From: Gemmatimonadales bacterium
GTDB taxonomy: Bacteria > Gemmatimonadota > Gemmatimonadetes > Gemmatimonadales > GWC2-71-9
Direction: 5' to 3'
NCBI GenBank assembly: GCA_049680185.1
Contig: JBAUHI010000032.1
Span: forward strand, 3,767 to 67,766
Length of the DNA: 64,000 nt
Below are positions 6,926 to 60,993 of the stretch, one piece after another. Under the pieces are notes generated by a model. That model had not been told where the DNA came from. It ran no database searches and saw nothing but the letters and a program-made list of their open reading frames with translations. Made by a program: the position numbers and the translations under genes. The number at the start of each line of letters is the position of its first letter. Within the stretch, counting starts at the first letter, position 1.

Positions 6926-7417
6926 ATGACCGCCGCTGAACGCCAGGCACTCATCCGCCAATACGCCGCCGGTCCCGCCAAGATCAAGGCGGCCCTCGCG
7001 CAGGTCCCCGCCGACGCACTGCAGTGGCGCCCGGGCCCGGGGAAATGGTCGGTCCATGAGATCGTGATCCACTGCGCCGACAGCGAGGTCCAGGCCCACA
7101 CGAGGATCCGGGCACTCCTGGCCGATGCCGATCCGGTCATCCACGCCTATGACCAGGACCGCTGGGCCGTCGCACTCGACTACCACCGACGCCCGCTCGC
7201 ACCGGCGCTCGCCACCATCGAGGCGGTCCGCGCCAACACCGTCGCGCTCATCGAATCGCTCACTGACGGGCAGTGGGCCCGTACCGGGCGCCATACGGAG
7301 TCAGGCCCCTTCTCGGCAGAAAAGTGGCTCACGATCTACGCCAAGCACCTCGATCAGGAGCGGCACGAAGGACAGATCCTGCGGAACCTGGAAGCGTGGC
7401 GCGGGCGGGGGAAGTAG
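6926..7417 (+). CDS. DinB-family (DinB_2) metal-dependent protein
   Basis: 163 aa. Four-helix DinB pattern with His residues in WSVHEIVIHCADSE and AKHLDQERHEGQI. Confidence 0.7.
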   Translation: MTAAERQALIRQYAAGPAKIKAALAQVPADALQWRPGPGKWSVHEIVIHCADSEVQAHTRIRALLADADPVIHAYDQDRWAVALDYHRRPLAPALATIEAVRANTVALIESLTDGQWARTGRHTESGPFSAEKWLTIYAKHLDQERHEGQILRNLEAWRGRGK

Positions 7418-7655
7418 GAGGAGGAGACGAGAGGAGAGGAGGCGATGGACGTGAGGAGGAGGTAAGGAATCAATGGTGGACTCGTGAGTCGCCGGCGACG
7501 TCATCCTGACACCGAGAGCCGCGCGGCCGAAGGATCGGCCAATCTGCCGATCGATCCTTCGGCCCTTCGGGCCTCAGGATGACGTGCTCGGAAAAGCCTC
7601 CCGCTCGCCTCTTCGCCTCCTCCCCTCTTCCTGCCTTTTCTCTTGATTCCCCCTC
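7418..7655. repeat. nested palindrome: purine-rich arm, GTCATCCTGA/GAAGGATCGG hairpin, pyrimidine-rich arm
   Basis: 7418-7469 is GAGGAGGAG-type purine tract. 7498-7538 is the left half of the core element and 7547-7585 its reverse complement. 7597-7655 is a CCTCCTC-type pyrimidine tract. It fills the gap between convergent genes. Confidence 0.85.
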
Positions 7656-7660
7656 GCGCG

Positions 7661-8299
7661 CTACTCGATCGGCACGTCGAACCGTACCTCGCGCTCGACC
7701 GGATACGAATAGTGCCACCACTCCATGTCGTACTGCTGGAACCCTTCCGCTTCCATCGCATGGCGGAGCAGGTCGCGGTCCGTGCGAGCCAGTCCGGTCG
7801 CGTTGGCCTCGTGGGCCTCGGGTGAGAAGGTGTCGAAGGGCGTCCCCATCTCGAGCGGACGCCCGGACTTCAAGTCGCGTAGGGTCAGGTCGATCGCCAG
7901 GCCCAAGTTATGGCGGCTCCGGCTGGCGATGTAGCCACCGGTCACCAGTTCCGGTCGGCCTACCCGCGAGGCCCACGCCACCATCTCGGCGGTGGCGCGG
8001 GCGGGCCGGTAGCTGTCGTAGATGAGGAGTCCGAGGCCCTGCCGGCGGAGCCGTGCCTCGACCCGCACCAGTGCGGCAGCGGCCTCGCGTCGAGTGAAGG
8101 CGCGATCGGCGGTGTATCCGGGAAGAGGCGCACCGGTGAAGTTGGAGTCGGTACGGTAGCGCAGGTCGACTGTGATGGTCGGATCGAGGGTGCGAACGTC
8201 GACCATCAGTGAATCGAATACGCGCTGATCGACCACAAGCGGCGTGGTGTCGGCAGGGGACTGCGGCGCGACGGCGAGGAGCAGGAGGAGAGGGAGCAT
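7661..8299 (-). CDS. D-alanyl-D-alanine dipeptidase (M15D, VanX/DdpX-like), secreted
   Basis: In-frame ATG 8299 gives signal-like MLPLLLLLAVAPQSPA. Zn-site motifs SRHNLGLAIDLTL and EWWHYSY. The longer ORF start at 8380 reads through the tandem repeat. Confidence 0.8.
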   Translation of the reverse strand: MLPLLLLLAVAPQSPADTTPLVVDQRVFDSLMVDVRTLDPTITVDLRYRTDSNFTGAPLPGYTADRAFTRREAAAALVRVEARLRRQGLGLLIYDSYRPARATAEMVAWASRVGRPELVTGGYIASRSRHNLGLAIDLTLRDLKSGRPLEMGTPFDTFSPEAHEANATGLARTDRDLLRHAMEAEGFQQYDMEWWHYSYPVEREVRFDVPIE

Positions 8300-8329
8300 G
8301 GGGGGAATATGGCTCGGATCGCCCCGGAC

Positions 8330-8496
8330 GTCATCCTGAGCAGAGCGAAAGATCGGCTGGCCTTCAGGGGTCCTCGTCATCCTGAGCAGAGCGAACGATC
8401 GGCTGGCCTTCAGGGGTCCTCGTCATCCTGAGCAGAGCGAAGGATCGGCTGGCCTTCAGGGGTCCTCGTCATCCTGAGCAGAGCGAAGGATCGGCC
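8330..8496. repeat. tandem array, 46-bp unit x 3.6
   Basis: Units at 8330, 8376, 8422 and 8468: GTCATCCTGAGCAGAGCGAANGATCGGCTGGCCTTCAGGGGTCCTC. They are identical except unit position 21 (A, C, G, G). The last unit is truncated 3 nt before the GIY-YIG stop codon. Confidence 0.95.
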
Positions 8497-8498
8497 CG

Positions 8499-8789
8499 CT
8501 ACCGAAGTTCTCCCAACTCGTCTGCACCAAGATCTCGCCACTCAGGGTTCGTGGCCTCGATGAGATCGACCTTCCGTTGACGCCGCCAACCCTTGAGCTG
8601 CCGCTCCCGCTCGACCATTGCCCGGGAAGACGGCGTCAACTCGAAATAGACCAGCCGATCGACCGAGTACCGATGAGTGAATCCCTCTCTCAGCCCCAGA
8701 CGGTGCTCTGCGACACGCTTGCGCAGGTCGGACGTCGAGCCGATGTACAACACCCGATTTCGATTGGCGAGGATGTAGACGTAGTACAC
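8499..8789 (-). CDS. GIY-YIG nuclease family protein (small stand-alone, COG2827-like)
   Basis: VYYVYILANRNRVLYIGSTSDLRKRVAEHRLG...RERQLKGWRRQRKVDLIEATNPEWRDL. I place the start at GTG 8789. The 59 upstream codons of ORF 8499..8966 are a translation of the flanking repeats (DVILSEAKDRP, HVILTPSAASGKDRP). Confidence 0.8.
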   Translation of the reverse strand: MYYVYILANRNRVLYIGSTSDLRKRVAEHRLGLREGFTHRYSVDRLVYFELTPSSRAMVERERQLKGWRRQRKVDLIEATNPEWRDLGADELGELR

Positions 8790-8805
8790 AGAGTCCTTGG
8801 TGGCG

Positions 8806-8893
8806 GGCCGATCCTTCCCGCTCGCTGCGCTCGGTGTCAGGATGACGTGCGCCGGAGCGACGGGCCGATCCTTCGCTTCGCTCAGGATGACGT
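8806..8893. repeat. two tandem right-half copies of the GTCATCCTGAG element (reverse complement orientation)
   Basis: 8806-8849 is GGCCGATCCTTC..GGTGTCAGGATGACGTG. 8862-8893 is GGGCCGATCCTTCGCTTCGCTCAGGATGACGTC. The reverse complement of the second matches the left-half unit at 8330-8496. Confidence 0.9.
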
Positions 8894-9022
8894 CGATCCT
8901 AAGGTCGGCTTCGGCATGTCGATAACCGAAATCGCGCACGGAGGCCCCGAAGATCGCCCACCGCATTGCGCCCCTCCGCTCCGGCCTGCATTATCGGGAA
9001 CCCATTTCTCCCGGATACCCCA

Positions 9023-10333
9023 ATGACCGATCGCCGCACCTTCCTCGCCGCCCTCGCCGCCCCGGCCGCCGCACGCGCCCTCAGCGTGCCCGCCGCCCAC
9101 CCCGCCGCGTCCCCGATCCTGGACGTCACCGACCCCCGGCCCCGGATGCCCGATCAGATCGGCGTCCGGGACGACGAGAAGTTCTGGAAGGAGCTGCGAC
9201 GCGAGTTCACGATCCCCAAGGACGAGGTGTTCTTCAATACCGGCACGATGGGATCGAGCCCCCGGATCGTGCAGGAGACGGTCATCGATCACATGCGCCA
9301 CGTCGACCGCGATGTGGCCCACTGGGACTACAAGGGCGACCACGAGCAGTACTTCACCGGCTACTTCAACGAACGCGGCTTTCGCGACCAACTGGGCCAG
9401 GTGCTCAACTGCAGCGGCAAGGACGTGGCCCTCTGTCAGAACGCCACGTTCGGGATGAACTTCGTCGCCAACGGGCTCGAACTCACTGCCGGTGACGAGG
9501 TGATCGTCACCGACCAGGCCCACCCCGGCGGCCGCAAAGGATTCGACCTCCGCGCCAAGCGGGAAGGGATCGTGGTGAAGGAAGTGAAGGTCCCCGACCC
9601 CGTCGCCTCACCCGACCAGCTCATCGACGGATTCACGGCCCTCACCACACCCAGGACCAAGGTCTGGGCCATCCCCCATATCTCCTCCGGCCGCGCCATC
9701 CGCTATCCGGTGGAGAAGCTCTGCGCCCTGGCCCACGACCGCGGCATCTTCTCCGCTGTGGACGGCGCCCAGGCGCTCGGCCATCTCGCCGTCGACGTGC
9801 AGGCGATGGGCTGCGACGCGTACTTCGGTTCTCCCCACAAGTGGATCCTGGCGCCCAAGGGCACCGGGTTCCTCTACGTCCGCCCCGAACGCCAGAAGGG
9901 ACTCTGGGCGACGCTCGCCTCGTTCGCATGGGATGATCAGGACGACCGGATGTTCGCCCTGATGCAATACGGCACCGGCAACCTGAGCCTGCTCAAGGGG
10001 CTCGGGAAGGCGATCGAGTTCCACCTCCAGATCGGCCCGAAGCGCGTCCAGGACCGGATCCTCGGTATGGCGGACCGGCTCCGGACCGCCCTCCAGGGTG
10101 TCCCGGGCGCCACCTTCGCCTCGCCGCTCCATCCCGACCTCACCTGCGCGTCGACGGTCTACGGGCTGAAGGGTGTCACCGGCGACGCGATCCAGGACTA
10201 CCTCTGGGACCACGGCAAGATCCGGGTCCGCAGCGAGGGCCCGGTCGGCGTTCGACACTGCTGCCACATCTACAACTCGCCGGCCGATGTGGACCGGGCG
10301 GTGGCGCTTCTGCGGTCGATGCCGCGGACGTAG
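9023..10333 (+). CDS. class V aminotransferase-fold PLP enzyme with Tat signal
   Basis: ATG 9023 gives MTDRRTFLAALAAPAAARALS, a twin-arginine motif. PLP-lysine context SPHKWILAPKGTGFLY. Confidence 0.8.
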   Translation: MTDRRTFLAALAAPAAARALSVPAAHPAASPILDVTDPRPRMPDQIGVRDDEKFWKELRREFTIPKDEVFFNTGTMGSSPRIVQETVIDHMRHVDRDVAHWDYKGDHEQYFTGYFNERGFRDQLGQVLNCSGKDVALCQNATFGMNFVANGLELTAGDEVIVTDQAHPGGRKGFDLRAKREGIVVKEVKVPDPVASPDQLIDGFTALTTPRTKVWAIPHISSGRAIRYPVEKLCALAHDRGIFSAVDGAQALGHLAVDVQAMGCDAYFGSPHKWILAPKGTGFLYVRPERQKGLWATLASFAWDDQDDRMFALMQYGTGNLSLLKGLGKAIEFHLQIGPKRVQDRILGMADRLRTALQGVPGATFASPLHPDLTCASTVYGLKGVTGDAIQDYLWDHGKIRVRSEGPVGVRHCCHIYNSPADVDRAVALLRSMPRT

Positions 10334-10760: not shown

Positions 10761-11231
10761 ATGATCCGTGAGATGCGAAACAAGCTCGGCAAGGAGATCG
10801 AAGACCTCTCCCACGAGCTCACCGTGACCCTCCCCCAGGCCATCGCCACCGCGGTCGCGATGGGCGACCTGCGCGAGAACTCGGAATACAAGGCCGCCCT
10901 GGAGCGCCAGCAGTTCGTCCAGGCCCGACTGGGCCAGCTCCATCAGCGCCTGAACCAGCTCCACCAGCTTTCGGCCATCGAGACCCCCGCCAACGAAGTG
11001 GGCCTGGGGTCGACGGTCACCGTGCTCGACGTCAAGACCAAGGAGAAGGAAGTTTTCGTGCTGGTCTTCGGCGAAATGGCCGATGTGGACTCAGGTCACA
11101 TCACCATCGCATCCCCGCTCGGTCGAGCGCTCAAAGGCCGCAAGGTGGGCGATCAAGTGGAACTCATCCTCCCCACGATGCGCCGCCAGCTCAAGGTCGT
11201 GGGCCTGGAAGCGGTCACGAAGGAGGCGTAG
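10761..11231 (+). CDS. greA: transcription elongation factor GreA
   Basis: ATG 10761 (MIREMRNKL). Coiled-coil acidic tip GDLRENSEYKAALERQ. C-terminal domain ITIASPLGRALKGRKVGD. Confidence 0.85.
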   Translation: MIREMRNKLGKEIEDLSHELTVTLPQAIATAVAMGDLRENSEYKAALERQQFVQARLGQLHQRLNQLHQLSAIETPANEVGLGSTVTVLDVKTKEKEVFVLVFGEMADVDSGHITIASPLGRALKGRKVGDQVELILPTMRRQLKVVGLEAVTKEA

Positions 11232-11599
11232 TGGACTTCCCCAAGAAACAGCTCCTCGTCGTCGGCGATCGGGTGCTCATCACGCCCGAAGAGGGAGAAG
11301 AGCGCACCCGCGTCGGGCTCTACCTCCCCGCCACCGCCCTCGACTCCCAACAGGTCCAGAGCGGCACGGTCATCGGCACCGGCCCCGGCGAGCCGATCGA
11401 CGACGTCTCCGCCCTCGACGCCGAACCGTGGAAGCTCGGCACCAAGGACCAACGCTTTCGTCCGATGCAGGCGCGGATCGGAGATCACGCGATCTTCTTC
11501 CGCAAGGCCGCGGTCGAGATCACTTTCGAGGAAAAGCGCTATCTCGTAGTCCCCCTCGCGGCGATCCTGGTGCTGGTGCGACAGGATATGCCTGTCTGA
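11231..11599 (+). CDS. GroES/Cpn10-fold family protein
   Basis: GTG 11231 overlaps the greA TAG by 1 nt. LLVVGDRVLITPEEGEERTRVGLYLP resembles the Cpn10 N-terminal strand and mobile-loop region. There is a long internal insertion relative to canonical GroES. Confidence 0.55.
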   Translation: MDFPKKQLLVVGDRVLITPEEGEERTRVGLYLPATALDSQQVQSGTVIGTGPGEPIDDVSALDAEPWKLGTKDQRFRPMQARIGDHAIFFRKAAVEITFEEKRYLVVPLAAILVLVRQDMPV

Positions 11600-11618: not shown

Positions 11619-11704
11619 ACGTCATCCTGAGGACGCGCAGCGTTCGAAGGATCGGCCCATCACCTAGCCGATCCTTCGGCGCCTCCGGCGCCTCAGGATG
11701 ACGT
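11619..11704. repeat. compact hairpin copy of the GTCATCCTGAG/GAAGGATCGG element
   Basis: CACGTCATCCTGAGGACGCGCAGCGTTCGAAGGATCGGCCC..loop..GCCGATCCTTCGGCGCCTCCGGCGCCTCAGGATGACG. Followed by a pyrimidine tract at 11719-11747. Confidence 0.9.
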
Positions 11705-26594: not shown

Positions 26595-26775
26595 GCTTGC
26601 AGCTATCGGCTGTCAGGTGCTCTAGAAACACACGAGCCTCCGTGGACCTCCACGGGGGCTCGCTGATTTAGTTCTGCCTGATAGCTGATAGCTGTTAGCT
26701 GATATCTGTTAGCTGCTAGCTGCTCGCTGCTCGCTGCTCGCTGCTCGCTGCTCGCTGCTAGCTGCAAGCTGCAAG
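26595..26775. repeat. AGCTGATAGCTG/GCTGCTC oligomer palindromic element
   Basis: The outermost GCTTGCAGCT (26595-26604) pairs with AGCTGCAAGC (26764-26773). Central hairpin GAGCCTCCGTG-gacctc-CACGGGGGCTC at 26635-26661. Long right arm of CTGATAGCTG and (GCTGCTC)n at 26678-26775. Confidence 0.85.
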
Positions 26776-28332
26776 CTACCCGCCCGCCTTTGCCACCGCC
26801 TCGCGCACATCCTTGTCGCTGTCCAACGCAAGTTCCGCCAGCGCCGCCTGCGCCACGGGGCCGCCGGCCAGCTGCAGCCCCTCGATGGCCCAGATCCGCT
26901 GCGCCACCGGCTTCCGCTTGAAGAGCTTTCCGCCGGGACTCGCCATCCGGATCAGCGCTTGCACCCCCTCGGCCGATCCGCTCCGCCCCACCGAGTAGCA
27001 CACCTCGCGAAGGACCTCGGGCACGCTCTCTTCTTCCAGGATCGACACCAACCGGAGTCCGAGCGCCGGGAGCTTCTTCCCGTCGATCACCAACACGGCC
27101 TGCAAGCGCACCCCCGGCGCTGGATCCCGGAGTGCCGTGCGCAGTGGCTCGACGGTGCCGGGGGTGCCGATCTTGGCGAGCGCCACGATCGCGGCGCGCT
27201 TGACCCGCTCATCGGGGTGGGTCACATGTCGCGCCAGCACCGGCACCGCCGTCACGAGCTTGAGCTCACCGCACAGCTCCGCCACGTTCCGGATCACGAA
27301 CCAGTCGCCATGTTCCAGCGTCTTGACGACGACATCCGATCCGTGGGCCGACTCGACCAGCGCGTCAAAATAGTGGCGCCGCTCGATGATGGTGGGTGCT
27401 GAGGCCAGAAGGTCGAGCAACACGTCGGTGGCACTGTCGCCCATCCGGGCCATCACCAGCAATGCGTCGCGCTTGCGCTCGGGTTGCGGCACGAAACGCG
27501 CGATCTCCTCCAGCGTCCTCCGTGGGAGGAGCCGCTTGAGCGCGATGTTGTACATCCGTGCCACTTCCTTCGACCCCGCCTGCGGCTCCGCCTCCACCAC
27601 CCGCACCGCCGCACGGAGGATCCCGTCCCAGTCGGCCTTGAGCGCCGCGGCGTCAGCGCTCCCGGCCAACTCGCTGAGCAAGTGGGTCACGGCGGCGCCG
27701 GCGGGATCCGCGGCGATCGCCAGCGAGAGCTCGTCGATCCGGGCGGTCACGTCGTTGGCCGAAGGGACATAGTGCATCATCCCGCCGTCCTCGGGTGTCA
27801 TCCCACCAGGGCCGAGTGCCGGCAGCTCGACCGAACCACGCGGCGGTGCCGACCCGATCACCTTCCGTGGCACCTCTCGTGGCGGGCCTGCCGTCGCTGC
27901 ATCGGTGGACCCCAGCGCTGACACGGCCGGGCCCGACGACTCTGCCGCCGCCAGCCGGAACTGGCTCGCGCCCGGCTCGCCGACCGCGGTGATGAACTCT
28001 TGGATGTGACGATAGGTGCCGGCGGGCGCCGCAAGCGCCCGCAGGAGCGAGAGGAGCGGTCCCGCGCCGGTGCCTTCCGGCAGGATGATCTCGCCGACGC
28101 CGTGCTGCAGCATCTGGCGAGCGAACGCCGCTGCCTCGGTGGCTTCTTCCGGTGCCAGGATGCCCTGGTACGCCAGCCCCTCGGACGTGGCGCCCAACTC
28201 CACCGGGCTCACACCCAGCGTGGTCACGAGCGCGCGGAACGCCGCCTTGTGCTCCTCCTTCGCGCCAGGACGATCGCGCAGAAGGACGACGACATTCCAG
28301 ATCTCGGAGACCACCGACAGGGGAGCGCTCAT
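26776..28332 (-). CDS. HEAT-repeat protein
   Basis: 518 aa. The C-terminal half has PVLARHVTHPDERVKRAAIVALAKIG, LRDPAPGVRLQAV and DSDKDVREAVAKA repeats. The N-terminal half is unassigned. Confidence 0.65.
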   Translation of the reverse strand: MSAPLSVVSEIWNVVVLLRDRPGAKEEHKAAFRALVTTLGVSPVELGATSEGLAYQGILAPEEATEAAAFARQMLQHGVGEIILPEGTGAGPLLSLLRALAAPAGTYRHIQEFITAVGEPGASQFRLAAAESSGPAVSALGSTDAATAGPPREVPRKVIGSAPPRGSVELPALGPGGMTPEDGGMMHYVPSANDVTARIDELSLAIAADPAGAAVTHLLSELAGSADAAALKADWDGILRAAVRVVEAEPQAGSKEVARMYNIALKRLLPRRTLEEIARFVPQPERKRDALLVMARMGDSATDVLLDLLASAPTIIERRHYFDALVESAHGSDVVVKTLEHGDWFVIRNVAELCGELKLVTAVPVLARHVTHPDERVKRAAIVALAKIGTPGTVEPLRTALRDPAPGVRLQAVLVIDGKKLPALGLRLVSILEEESVPEVLREVCYSVGRSGSAEGVQALIRMASPGGKLFKRKPVAQRIWAIEGLQLAGGPVAQAALAELALDSDKDVREAVAKAGG

Positions 28333-33128: not shown

Positions 33129-33348
33129 GAAGCGATCGGCTAACGGCGGCTATCAGCTATCGGCTATCAGCTATCGGCTGACAGCCAACTGCTCTGGCTA
33201 TCGGTTGTCAGCGATCAGCGGGCCCGAACGCGAGCAAGCCCCCGGCGTCTACGTCGGAGGCTTGGTTGTCACAGGAGCGTGCTGATAGCTGATGGCTGAT
33301 AGCTGATAGCTGCTAGCTCCTAGCTGATAACTGCTAGCCTCGAAGACC
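33129..33348. repeat. AGCTGATAGCTG oligomer palindromic element (second copy of family)
   Basis: Left arm 33131-33219 (CTATCAGCTATCGGCTATCAGCTATCGGCTGACAGCC...). Central hairpin AAGCCCCCG..CGGAGGCTT at 33236-33263. Right arm 33281-33339 (GCTGATAGCTGATGGCTGATAGCTGATAGCTG...). Confidence 0.85.
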
Positions 33349-40503: not shown

Positions 40504-41289
40504 GTGCCTGCCTCCCCTTCCGTCGCTTGGTCCCAGGTCGCCCGCGCCTACCAGCGCAACATCCTCCCCGGGTTCACTCCGGCGGCGGCGGCCTTGTGCA
40601 CTGCCCTGCGGGTCGGCGCCGGTGATCGAGTGCTGGATGTCGCCTGCGGCCCTGGAACGCTGTCGCTCGCAGCCCTGCGTCAGGGCGCGGAGCAGGTCAC
40701 CGGCGTCGATTTCGCGGCCGAGATGGTAGCGCTCGCCCAGGGCGCGACGGTCGGGAGCAACGCCGAGTTCTTCCTCGGCGATGCCACGGGGCTGCCGGTA
40801 CAGGATGGTTCGTTCGATGTGGCGGCTTCGAGCTTCGGCCTCATCTTCGCGCCCGATCCCCGGCGCGCGATGAGCGAACTCCATCGCGCACTCGTGCCTG
40901 GCGGACGGGCCGGGCTCATCGCCTGGCTGCGGGGCGATACCACCAACGCGTACTACGACCGGGTGTATCACCACCTCCCGCGGCCCACCACCACCCACGA
41001 CCCCTACGCTTGGGGTGATCGCGCCACCGCCCGCACCTGGTTCGGTGAATGGTTCGGCTACCTCGAACTGGCGACCATCACCGTGCCCTACGAAGGTCCG
41101 TCCCCCGCGGCGGTGTGGGAGGTGCTCCGCACCTCGACCGGCAGGGTGGCCGTGGCCTACGCGGCCCTCGACCGCGCCGCGCAGGAGCGGATGGATCGAG
41201 AGATGATCGATTTCTTCGAGCGGTTCCGCCGCCCCGAGGGCGGCATCTATTGGCCCCGCGAGGCGTTGATGATCACGGGGACGAAGTAG
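40504..41289 (+). CDS. class I SAM-dependent methyltransferase
   Basis: Motif I VLDVACGPGT. DGSFDVAASSFGLIF. GTG start. Confidence 0.8.
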   Translation: MPASPSVAWSQVARAYQRNILPGFTPAAAALCTALRVGAGDRVLDVACGPGTLSLAALRQGAEQVTGVDFAAEMVALAQGATVGSNAEFFLGDATGLPVQDGSFDVAASSFGLIFAPDPRRAMSELHRALVPGGRAGLIAWLRGDTTNAYYDRVYHHLPRPTTTHDPYAWGDRATARTWFGEWFGYLELATITVPYEGPSPAAVWEVLRTSTGRVAVAYAALDRAAQERMDREMIDFFERFRRPEGGIYWPREALMITGTK

Positions 41290-41490
41290 GTGAACGATGA
41301 AAAGTGAAAGGTGAACTGGATCTGGATGCGCTCGGCGGCCCGCTGATCACACGTCATCCTGAGGGGCCTTCAGGCCCCGAAGGACCGGCCTGCATAACGA
41401 CCCGATCCTTCGCTCTGCTCAGGATGACGTGCCTGTCCCGTCGGTCCCTTCCGATCCCACCCGTTCACCGTTGACCGTTTACCGTTCACC
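41289..41490. repeat. nested palindrome: GTGAAC-type outer arms around a GTCATCCTGAG/GAAGGA hairpin
   Basis: Outer left arm 41289-41319 is GGTGAACGATGAAAAGTGAAAGGTGAACTGG. Inner element at 41351-41430. Outer right arm 41457-41490 is CACCCGTTCACCGTTGACCGTTTACCGTTCACCC. Confidence 0.85.
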
Positions 41491-60523: not shown

Positions 60524-60632
60524 TACCGGTGGACGGTGAAGAGTGAACAGTGAACAGTGAACGGGGGCCTCCGTGGGATCTGCCAAGCTCCCGTTCACCG
60601 TTCCCCGTTCACCGTTGACGCCCTTGCCCGTT
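60521..60632. repeat. GTGAACGGTGAA-type palindromic element, copy 1
   Basis: Begins with TGATACCGGTGGACGGTGAAGAGTGAACAGTGAACAGTGAACGGG. Loop contains GCCTCCGTGG. Right arm is CCCGTTCACCGTTCCCCGTTCACCGTTGAC. Confidence 0.9.
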
Positions 60633-60874: not shown

Positions 60875-60993
60875 GATACCGGTGAACGGTAAACGGTGAA
60901 GGGTGAACAGTGAACGGTGAACGGGGCGCCCAGCGGATCTTCGTGGGCGACCCGTTCACCGTTTCCATTTCACCGTTCACCGTTCCCGTTCAC
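60874..60993. repeat. GTGAACGGTGAA-type palindromic element, copy 2 (direct repeat of copy 1)
   Basis: Begins with TGATACCGGTGAACGGTAAACGGTGAAGGGTGAACAGTGAACGGTGAACGGGG. Right arm is CCCGTTCACCGTTTCCATTTCACCGTTCACCGTTCCCGTTCAC. Confidence 0.9.

Follow-up and report, generated by a model that had tools for sequence, protein, structure and literature searches.

A probable Ssn nuclease locus with GA-type hairpin repeats in a soil Gemmatimonadales genome

A gene for a small GIY-YIG nuclease in a 64-kb stretch of DNA from a soil Gemmatimonadales MAG (the whole stretch analyzed is called the window below) lies between inverted copies of a hairpin repeat that also occurs elsewhere in the window. The locus raises the question whether nuclease and repeats form one system and, if so, of which kind. 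In the original prediction the layout was compared with REP/RAYT, and no GIY-YIG equivalent of REP/RAYT was thought to be described. One does exist, namely the Ssn family of ~94-aa GIY-YIG nucleases, which cut ssDNA beside hairpin repeats (NTS/SRM) flanking their own genes, and the comparison with REP/RAYT/IS200 was drawn in the same paper (Chenal et al., 2025; PMC11893778). We consider it probable (about 0.85) that the locus is an Ssn-SRM locus, meaning that the protein belongs to the Ssn family and that the repeats, both those beside the gene and the dispersed ones, are its cognate SRMs. This type of system was published in 2025 and is here seen in a soil Gemmatimonadales genome; hence, it opens no new category.

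The nuclease gene and its product

The gene and its putative ribosome binding site were located as follows:

8499-8789, minus strand: ssn gene for a nuclease of 96 aa with GIY-YIG as its single domain (start codon GTG 8789, stop codon TAG 8501-8499)
8794-8798, minus strand: Shine-Dalgarno-like AAGGA, 5-9 nt 5′ of the GTG start, read from the sequence

The ORF at 8499-8966 (minus strand) was shown to contain the Pfam GIY-YIG domain PF01541 (E = 6e-15), which spans nearly the whole 96-aa protein. Together with the upstream AAGGA, this confirmed the previously proposed 97-codon GIY-YIG core from GTG 8789 to TAG 8499. The ORF is open from ATG 8966, and the public record (P0001) accordingly annotates a 155-aa product, in which the two upstream repeat units would encode an N-terminal extension. 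It is very hard to believe that this is the true product, since the extension is mere translated repeat (VILSEAKDR, VILTPSAASGKDR), the same repeat units are found in non-coding contexts too, the Pfam domain begins only at residue 61 of the long ORF, and the AAGGA sits before GTG 8789. Besides, the closest homologs of the window protein are 96 aa long with the N-terminus MYYVYIL or MYWVYIM, and the start of the 96-aa orthologs P0002 and P0004 matches the GTG start in the window. A recurring annotation error is flagged by this case, in which ssn ORFs are lengthened through translated repeats.

The AlphaFold model of the 96-aa protein (pLDDT 91) consists of one compact GIY-YIG domain, and its best structural matches were the catalytic domains of UPF0213, Slx1, I-TevI and UvrC, all of GIY-YIG type. 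Searches of NCBIfam, PADLOC and PHROGs gave weak sub-threshold GIY-YIG-type matches only and no specific family or defence system. The GIY-YIG fold and the best NCBIfam match (TIGR01453, a model of group I intron endonucleases) would agree with a free-standing homing endonuclease acting on a double-stranded site in a cognate allele. This explanation is most improbable: the match reached 19.7 bits compared to a cut-off of 56, the protein of only 96 aa has no DNA-binding domain, the gene is intergenic and lies in neither an intron nor an intein, synteny is conserved (see below), and dsDNA is not cut by the characterized homologs (PMC11893778). The protein shares the catalytic fold with I-TevI-type homing endonucleases; the second, DNA-binding domain, the cleavage of dsDNA and the location in introns or next to targets that mark that type do not apply here, and membership was rejected.

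The nearest solved structures are those of UPF0213/YhbQ (PDB 1ZG2 and 1YWL), which share fold and size with the window protein. However, the relation is distant: 1ZG2 scored only 25 bits (E = 2e-4 with a single sequence, improving to E = 1e-8 with a profile) and showed 26% identity in the structural alignment. Membership in UPF0213 (YhbQ/BH0048-like) was rejected, as the SsnA ORF from Neisseria scored far better, and we know of no repeat association for UPF0213.

The comparison with Neisseria was performed with the ORF at the SsnA locus of N. gonorrhoeae, standing in for N. meningitidis (Nm) SsnA. This ORF is the single one flanked by canonical NTS repeats, and it reproduces the published length of 94 aa as well as the numbering of the Y6, Y17 and E64 mutants, in which cleavage by Nm SsnA is abolished (PMC11893778). 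The window protein matched it with E = 2e-20 over 91% of the query in tblastn and with 53% identity (E = 2e-30) in pairwise BLASTP. It thereby lies within the loose homolog definition for Ssn (E < 1e-10 over >75% of the length) and below the strict one, which adds at least 60% identity (PMC11893778). Y5, Y15 and E62 of the window protein align with Y6, Y17 and E64 of SsnA, so that the catalytic Tyr, Tyr and Glu are shared; among 28 homologs, Y5 and E62 were invariant and Y15 was at least 90% conserved. In addition, Pfam, the model and the fold all show a lone GIY-YIG domain and no second domain for DNA binding, in a protein whose 96 aa are close to the ~94 aa of the Ssn family. The Ssn family has been placed in CDD cd10448 (GIY-YIG_unchar_3) (PMC11893778).

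GA-type hairpin units around the gene and elsewhere in the window

The following repeats and inverted repeats were found around ssn:

8329-8494, plus strand: tandem array of four 28-nt SRM units (CGTCATCCTGAGCAGAGCGAAGGATCGG), from Tandem Repeats Finder and the unit list
8329-8356, 8375-8402, 8421-8448 and 8467-8494, plus strand: the array units, with 18-nt spacers between them
8808-8847, minus strand: SRM unit (CGTCATCCTGACACCGAGCGCAGCGAGCGGGAAGGATCGG) whose internal stem-loop is long, located upstream of the ssn start and with its tail facing the gene
8865-8892, minus strand: outer SRM unit upstream of ssn (CGTCATCCTGAGCGAAGCGAAGGATCGG), forming an inverted repeat with the last array unit (39 nt, 87% complementary)
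8480-8503, no strand: left arm of an extended inverted repeat abutting the gene (AGAGCGAAGGATCGGCCCGCTACC), including the stop codon, with its partner at 8799-8822
8799-8822, no strand: right arm of the extended inverted repeat beside the ssn start (repeat search: 24 nt, 88% complementary)

The bracketing of the gene by inverted repeat copies proved real, with four units in tandem after the stop codon and two before the start. The array lies downstream of the ssn stop with its unit heads facing away from the gene, and its last unit ends a few nt short of the stop codon (8499-8501). Tandem Repeats Finder reported it at 8329-8495 with a period of 46, 3.6 copies and 98% matches. An independent assembly (L001) is identical over 8470-9867 (0 mismatches) and breaks within the last array unit; therefore, the copy number of 3.6 stands on one assembly. 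A CRISPR array was rejected as an explanation of the 46-bp period, as the 18-nt spacers are identical throughout and the whole period shows 98% matches. The GGATCGGCCCGC borders of the extended inverted repeat were found again in the orthologous loci L085 and L086.

Three convergent SRM doublets with no gene between the units were also identified, which bears out the earlier report of gene-less hairpins elsewhere:

7499-7584, plus-strand unit 7499-7538 and minus-strand unit 7551-7584: gene-less convergent SRM doublet
11620-11703, plus-strand unit 11620-11655 and minus-strand unit 11668-11703: gene-less convergent SRM doublet
41352-41429, plus-strand unit 41352-41388 and minus-strand unit 41402-41429: gene-less convergent SRM doublet

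The motif GTCATCCTGAG with at most one mismatch gave 14 matches in the window compared to 1.72 expected, a number reached in 0 of 100 shuffles. The first doublet is located between the convergent 3′ ends of a DinB_2 and an M15 peptidase gene and is nested in a purine/pyrimidine-rich palindrome (~7396-7664). The second begins 20 nt past the stop of the ORF 11231-11599. The third, flanked by a methyltransferase gene and a thioredoxin-domain gene, lies in the loop of a palindrome with GTGAACN heptamers (arms 41289-41319 and 41460-41490).

The original prediction placed the gene in the loop of a single palindrome built from two halves. This did not hold, as each half was shown to be a complete hairpin unit: the inner parts of the two units of one doublet are not complementary to each other but each is self-complementary, which makes the halves independent hairpins and not arms of one palindrome. 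The unit layout is CGTC, ATCCT, GA, a variable GC stem-loop, GA, AGGAT, CGG, which we call the GA-type. It would fold as a directional hairpin, in which an unpaired conserved 5′ (C)GTC precedes an outer stem of 5 bp (ATCCT/AGGAT). This stem encloses the conserved GA/GA internal loop and a variable inner stem-loop rich in GC, and it is followed directly by a conserved C. As DNA hairpins the 28-nt units are thermodynamically unexceptional (-2.8 kcal/mol, z about -0.2), so the case for the hairpin structure rests on covariation. In the alignment 99.2% of cells were paired, and both sides of a pair were changed in 52 cells compared to 14.4 in shuffles; at the two inner pairs, which are not forced by the selection of units, both sides were changed in 13 and 2 cells. 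G2, T3 and C4 were invariant among 56 distinct GA-type units, and C26 was at least 90% conserved.

These positions correspond to the functional determinants mapped in Nm, the 5′ GTC and a C just 3′ of the stem (PMC11893778); six units flank the gene. The window unit (CGTC-ATCCTGAGC-AGA-GCGAAGGAT-CGG) and the Neisseria NTS (CGTC-ATTCCCGC-GCAG-GCGGGAAT-CCGG) share the same frame, CGTC-AT...AT-C, and are both 28 nt long, and one locus from Dehalococcoidaceae (L023) contains units of both types. As in Neisseria, directional hairpin repeats flank the gene and are also dispersed in intergenic DNA, clustered in alternating orientation. Unlike the NTS, the GA-type hairpin has the outer stem ATCCT/AGGAT, the GA/GA internal loop and an inner stem-loop of 7-19 nt; the host here is a soil Gemmatimonadales MAG; and the inversion of the units on the two sides of the gene is strict, with the heads facing outward, whereas orientations are mixed at the gonococcal locus.

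The published SRM pattern, HGTCWYN(0-2)YYVSBRHN(0-5)WNVSBRGN(0-2)RNCYNB, gave 0 matches in the whole window (0-4 in shuffles), and in 80 fetched homolog loci no match lay 250 nt or less from the gene. The same implementation found 8 matches in 3.2 kb around gonococcal ssnA, and the negative result in the window is therefore taken as real. The pattern fails on the GA-type because of the internal GA loop and because T stands where the pattern demands V. A literature search for the motif strings returned only unrelated primers and plasmid sequences. The GA-type hairpins are unmatched by the published degenerate pattern but retain the functional frame, with the conserved GTC before and the conserved C after the stem.

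The repeats might instead act mainly as RNA or transcription elements, for example as bidirectional terminators or as mRNA-stabilizing hairpins as proposed for REPs, with a secondary link to the nuclease. All three doublets lie directly past gene 3′ ends and within other intergenic palindromes, and they fold strongly as RNA (z-scores -5.5 to -10). We nevertheless regard this explanation as quite unlikely. Rfam gave no match in the whole window at gathering thresholds, and the sub-threshold matches to miRNA hairpins and sRNAs obtained in E-value mode for 7300-9100 were rejected as generic hairpin noise. No T-tract terminators were found in 7300-9100 except for a single weak one within the gene, and a plain terminator hairpin would not need the invariant or near-invariant unpaired GTC and 3′ C. 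Besides, termination leaves the enrichment beside ssn genes across phyla unexplained (see next section), and Nm SsnA does not bind the RNA form of its repeat (PMC11893778).

Repeats beside homologous genes and turnover in relatives

The association was counted in 70 fully flanked homolog loci from many phyla, of which 67 had a GA-type head motif near the gene on at least one side. A plus head was present upstream in 54 loci and a minus head downstream in 55, and both were present in 44; hence, the layout first noticed in the window, in which inverted copies of a dispersed hairpin lie on either side of a nuclease gene, is a recurring one. The head density was 6.26 per kb near the gene compared to 0.198 per kb at distances above 500 nt (~30-fold). 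GA-type hairpins flank most members of this Ssn subclade, among them Acidobacteriota, Chloroflexota, Gemmatimonadota, Cyanobacteria, Firmicutes, Bacteroidota, Planctomycetota and others, and the published SRM pattern thus misses a large and phylogenetically broad class of Ssn-associated hairpins. If this is true, the published prevalence of Ssn-repeat pairing would be too low, because the GA-type escapes the pattern.

A further explanation is that SRM-ssn-SRM forms an IS-like or REPIN-RAYT-like element, in which the nuclease mobilizes the unit and the gene-less doublets are non-autonomous members spread in trans. We consider this doubtful; a hypothesis of the same kind was raised by the Ssn authors (PMC11893778). 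The mobile-element explanation does not conflict with the Ssn reading of the enzyme, to which it adds mobility as a further claim. It is favored by the inverted layout in the window, with the extended inverted repeat reaching the stop codon, and by the prevalence of inverted over direct orientation (70 vs. 22) among adjacent units within 80 nt in the homolog loci.

Two relatives with 82% and 74% identity were found to have the same gene neighborhood (aminotransferase, ssn, M15 peptidase), from which we conclude that ssn was inherited vertically. This conserved synteny argues against recent movement of the gene. The window holds only one ssn gene, as a second paralog was sought and none was found, and this single copy speaks against the mobile-element explanation and in favor of the Ssn reading. 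The three orthologous ssn loci differ in repeat number and internal loops, and the doublet 41352-41429 is missing from the orthologous spacer of the relative L168, in which the neighboring gene is 78% identical. Both observations agree with mobility, but they show turnover of the repeats only. Further points in favor are that two other copies of the heptamer palindrome in the window are free of SRMs, with 11-18 nt between the arms compared to 140 nt in the filled copy, and that breaks in the relatives' contigs fall at SRMs. In addition, 0 strict units were detected in 298 kb of related soil contigs compared to 9 in the 64-kb window. These 298 kb come from a metagenome scan with the M15 peptidase that yielded 80 loci, and as these are mostly non-syntenic homologs (58-68% identity), they are usable just as a negative control. 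One of them (L144) has neither the aminotransferase gene nor ssn nor the doublet. Apparent heads within the M15 peptidase loci were rejected as SRMs, being conserved coding sequence.

Against mobility, neither an empty/filled pair from close strains nor a target-site signature was obtained. The geometry also disagrees: the outward heads place the predicted cuts on opposite strands, while IS200/IS605 elements carry their hairpins and both cuts on one strand. The locus resembles IS200/IS605 TnpA in that a small nuclease gene lies between subterminal hairpins that, by analogy with the characterized homologs, would be recognized as ssDNA, but the two differ in fold and chemistry, and here the units are inverted and synteny of the gene is conserved among relatives. 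Enzymes of the GIY-YIG type act by hydrolysis and are not known to pass through a covalent intermediate with DNA. Alone, such an enzyme would not be capable of the strand transfer carried out by HUH transposases.

RAYTs are HUH/Y1 transposase-like proteins of the IS200/IS605 TnpA family that work through a covalent 5′-phosphotyrosine intermediate; REP/RAYT and REPIN systems were reportedly described by Nunvar et al. in 2010 and by Bertels and Rainey in 2011. As in REP/RAYT, a single-copy, vertically inherited nuclease gene is flanked by inverted short palindromic repeats, the repeat is also dispersed as intergenic inverted doublets, and the hairpin would, judging from the Ssn homologs, be recognized in ssDNA. 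The resemblance is one of layout only, since the window protein shows no homology to RAYTs and belongs to the hydrolytic GIY-YIG nucleases. Membership in REP/RAYT by HUH/Y1 transposase homology failed, as GIY-YIG was the sole Pfam family and the structure matched GIY-YIG proteins only.

Proposed function of the Ssn-SRM locus

Four Ssn homologs were reported to bind their repeat only as ssDNA and to cut a few nt upstream of it; they cleave ssDNA next to their own repeats and neither dsDNA nor RNA (PMC11893778). By analogy, the window enzyme would bind the folded unit only where that strand is single-stranded and would then hydrolyze the DNA a few nt 5′ of the GTC. The earlier suggestion that the nuclease recognizes the hairpin as its substrate agrees with this published biochemistry. 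In the cell, the likely consequence would be that ssDNA carrying SRMs is cleaved, for instance transforming or conjugative DNA on entry or intermediates of replication and recombination, and this may modulate recombination around SRM-marked sites. As a defined pair of enzyme and motif from an uncultivated soil lineage, it could broaden the set of site-specific ssDNA nucleases.

In this proposal ssn would be a resident gene passed on vertically, with turnover among the repeats near it and at other sites. The comparison of relatives provides evidence on a question left by the Ssn authors, with a stable nuclease gene whose repeats turn over. More speculatively, the GA-type doublets might be REPIN-like, gained and lost preferentially in the exposed loops of intergenic palindromes that were already present, and maintained by a domesticated, vertically inherited GIY-YIG ssDNA nuclease, which would make them a second, independently evolved counterpart of REPIN-RAYT.

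The ssn gene and its protein

One Pfam domain was identified in the ORF at 8499–8966 (minus strand): GIY-YIG (PF01541, E = 6e-15), which begins at residue 61. The window has a GC content of 67% and originates from a Gemmatimonadales metagenome-assembled genome (MAG). An AAGGA sequence is located 5–9 nt upstream of GTG 8789, and translation from this GTG gives a 96-aa product with the N-terminus MYYVYILAN, as in the closest 96-aa homologs. The public record of the nuclease (P0001) gives a 155-aa protein with its start at ATG 8966; the 59 additional residues correspond to upstream intergenic DNA (8790–8966) including two repeat units (VILSEAKDR, VILTPSAASGKDR). C-terminal tails reading SLRSE or SLRSG were seen in several ssn homologs and may be translated repeats. 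The AlphaFold model of the window protein was confident (pLDDT 91) and matched GIY-YIG domains only, the best being UPF0213 protein 1ZG2, with Slx1, I-TevI and UvrC ranking next; PDB as searched contained no Ssn structure.

Ssn proteins were described as small single-domain GIY-YIG proteins (CDD cd10448) whose genes lie beside hairpin repeats (Chenal et al., Nat Commun 2025; PMC11893778). The Neisseria repeat was named NTS, CGTCATTCCCGCGMAVGCGGGAATCYRG, and such repeats in general Ssn-related motifs (SRMs), with at least one SRM in 71% of homolog regions and SRMs on both sides in 42%. Binding of the repeat by four purified Ssn homologs was restricted to ssDNA, which was cut a few nucleotides upstream of the repeat; dsDNA, RNA and the reverse strand were not cleaved, and cleavage was abolished by Y6A, Y17A and E64A. 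The NTS-ssnA-NTS arrangement was likened in the Discussion to insertion sequences, IS200/IS605, REPs and BIMEs, and domestication was proposed (PMC11893778). Thus, the central idea of the original prediction, which compared the locus with REP/RAYT and knew of no described GIY-YIG equivalent, had already been published, and the window locus is one example of the Ssn-SRM system.

Two gonococcal chromosomes that PLSDB lists as plasmids were used as reference. The window protein matched one place in them (tblastn E = 2e-20, 91% of the query), and the ORF found there, with canonical NTS units on its flanks, showed 53% identity to the window protein (pairwise BLASTP, E = 2e-30). When three residues are assumed before the first conserved Thr, this ORF has 94 aa with Tyr 6, Tyr 17 and Glu 64, exactly reproducing the published length and mutant numbering, and it was therefore taken as the SsnA ortholog. 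The three residues align with Y5, Y15 and E62 of the window protein and are invariant or nearly so in 28 homologs. These comparisons showed that the window protein belongs to the Ssn family. One of the gonococcal sequences (L082; NZ_CP119142.1, a 2.17-Mb chromosome entered in PLSDB as a plasmid) contains no ATG, GTG or TTG at the expected SsnA start (1480–1500 of the locus); the in-frame codons are ATT ATA TGC ACG and a nearby ATG is out of frame, so that ssnA may use a rare start codon or be inactive in that strain.

Repeat units and their architecture

The following repeats were detected around ssn and elsewhere in the window:

8329–8495, tandem array of a 46-bp unit, 3.6 copies, 98% matches (Tandem Repeats Finder), ending a few nt before the ssn stop
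8808–8847 and 8865–8892, two units upstream of ssn, on the strand opposite to the array
7499–7584, 11620–11703 and 41352–41429, inverted doublets without a gene

The bracketing of the nuclease gene by inverted repeat copies and the presence of gene-less doublets elsewhere were thus as originally predicted. Allowing at most one mismatch, GTCATCCTGAG occurred 14 times compared to 1.72 expected, a number reached in 0 of 100 shuffles. In all, 12 units were recognized in the 64-kb window, nine of them strict GA-type. The same sequence from an independent assembly (L001) showed 0 mismatches over 8470–9867 but ends inside the last array unit; it therefore confirms the gene and the upstream units, not the array copy number. 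Contig ends of close relatives and of the independent assembly (L085 end, L001 end, L169 start) tend to fall in or beside SRMs or adjacent palindromes, as expected of dispersed repeats that split short-read assemblies.

Each unit is directional and contains, in order, (A)CGTC, ATCCT, GA, a variable inner stem-loop, GA, AGGAT and CGG. The two halves, previously regarded as arms of one palindrome, were each shown to be a complete hairpin unit, and in all three doublets the partners carry unlike inner segments that are unable to pair with one another. The 12 units have the outer boxes in common and differ in the inner segments (e.g., GC-AGA-GC, GC-GAA-GC, GGCCC-GAA-GGGCC, GGCGCC-GGA-GGCGCC and GGGGCC-TTCA-GGCCCC), which are plainly self-complementary in most units, with folding less clear for the long inserts in 7499–7538 and 8808–8847. 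DNA folding gave most units, including 8808–8847, a 5-bp outer stem and an inner stem separated by a 2x2 GA/GA internal loop; the exceptions were 7499–7538, which did not fold in this way, and 41352–41388, with a 4-bp outer stem. The folding energy of short units was not exceptional (z about -0.2), and the evidence for structure is therefore evolutionary. In a set of 56 distinct units of 28 nt, taken from both the window and homologous loci, 99.2% of cells were paired, where for the outer five pairs complementarity was required at unit collection, so that their variety counts and their pairing does not. Changes on both sides were found in 52 cells compared to 14.4 in shuffles, and the two inner pairs, not forced by unit selection, showed compensatory changes such as GC to AU, UA and CG. 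The unit architecture is shown by this covariation.

Motif class and layout across homologs

The NTS and the window unit are alike in being 28 nt long and in sharing a 5′ CGTC-AT and a 3′ AT-C(C)GG. Positions G2, T3 and C4 never varied among GA-type units, with C26 conserved to at least 90%, and these are the positions found to be critical in PMC11893778. However, the published degenerate SRM pattern gave 0 matches in the window and 0 in the vicinity of the gene across 80 homologous genome loci. Applied to 3.2 kb surrounding gonococcal ssnA, the same implementation found eight matches, showing that these negatives are real. Judged by its sequence, the window motif is an SRM variant outside the coverage of the published pattern. 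A Dehalococcoidaceae locus (L023) contains an NTS-type unit, TGTCATTCCCGCGCAGGCGGGAATCCAG, together with GA-type units and so links the two classes. In five further loci (L007, L013, L014, L015 and L024), units on one strand have ATCCT/AGGAT arms and those on the other ATTCT/AGAAT, which suggests two unit subtypes side by side in each locus.

Scanning a single genome for each species gave more than 590 relatives, and the best 80 loci were analysed. These were from Acidobacteriota, Gemmatimonadota, Chloroflexota, Cyanobacteria, Firmicutes, Bacteroidota, Planctomycetota, Verrucomicrobia, Nitrospinae, Proteobacteria and Bifidobacterium. In the 70 of 80 loci with at least 250 nt on each side, the head motif (GTCATYC...) was present on the gene strand upstream in 54 and on the opposite strand downstream in 55; 44 contained both heads in the arrangement of the window and 67 at least one. 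Heads were found at 6.26 per kb up to 250 nt from the gene compared to 0.198 per kb at distances above 500 nt, and neighbouring units were inverted in 70 cases and direct in 22. Thus, small GIY-YIG paralogs of this kind are usually flanked by inverted copies, as the original prediction proposed to check, and the gene-repeat association is shown to be conserved. What is added to the published system is modest: a GA-type motif class missed by the published pattern, its breadth across phyla, and the contrast of a syntenic gene with repeats that are gained or lost. On Planktothrix agardhii plasmid p1 (L083; NZ_LR882964.1 17356–20628), clusters of GA-type SRMs lie to either side of an ssn homolog that is located inside a defence-gene neighbourhood, with a type IIL MmeI-like restriction-modification gene on one side and drmA, the DISARM helicase gene, on the other.

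Repeat turnover, mobility and function

GIY-YIG nucleases are hydrolytic and act without a covalent intermediate, and a GIY-YIG enzyme alone would thus be unable to transpose DNA like HUH enzymes. That ssn and its SRMs form a mobile element is considered unlikely. The outward-facing heads would place the predicted cuts on opposite strands. Against recent movement of the gene itself, ssn is present as a single copy in the 64-kb window, and the two closest orthologs (82% and 74% identity; another Gemmatimonadales MAG and a farmland metagenome) share the same neighbourhood, both being divergent from a class-V aminotransferase gene; in one ortholog locus (L086) ssn is followed by the same M15 peptidase gene and GreA precedes. 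In a soil metagenome contig of a more distant relative (L144; Ga0302323_100010627), whose M15 peptidase shows 62% identity, the gene order is GreA, M15, DinB_2 with a 16-nt M15-DinB_2 gap and neither the aminotransferase gene nor ssn, so that neither the aminotransferase-ssn segment nor the doublet is universal at this locus.

Whereas the ssn gene is syntenic, the repeats are turning over. Unit number and inner loops vary among the three orthologous ssn loci, and strict GA-type units numbered 0 in 298 kb of related soil contigs compared to nine in the 64-kb window. The methyltransferase/thioredoxin-domain spacer is 204 nt with a doublet in the window and 121 nt without any SRM in a relative (thioredoxin-domain protein 78% identical). 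The nesting of two doublets in larger palindromes, described below, was taken as further evidence of turnover. These data show no more than gain or loss of the repeats.

Based on the purified homologs, the enzyme would bind the folded unit on the CGTCAT...GGATCGG strand when single-stranded and would cut a few nt 5′ of GTC. Speculatively, its cellular role might be to restrict or trim SRM-bearing ssDNA in the course of replication, recombination, conjugation or DNA uptake. A further role as transcript-end hairpins is possible for the doublets, all three of which come after gene 3′ ends, but this role leaves the conserved unpaired bases and the association with ssn unexplained.

Other repeats, built from heptamers, were also found in the window:

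60536–60619, 60884–60985, and 41289–41319 with 41460–41490, GTGAACN/NGTTCAC inverted-array palindromes, a second dispersed intergenic family
33147–33185 with 33281–33338, (GCTATCA)n and inverted (GCTGATA)n, about 100 nt apart
26678–26777, CTGCTAG/CTGCTCG array, 14 copies

Heptamer-based intergenic palindromes seem to be characteristic of this genome. The doublet at 41352–41429 lies between the arms of a GTGAACN palindrome, 140 nt apart, whereas the two other copies have 11–18 nt between the arms and no SRM. The doublet at 7499–7584 is nested in a larger imperfect palindrome (7396–7664) between convergent DinB_2 and M15 peptidase genes, with one purine-rich arm (GGAGGAGG...) and one pyrimidine-rich arm (CCTCCTCC...).
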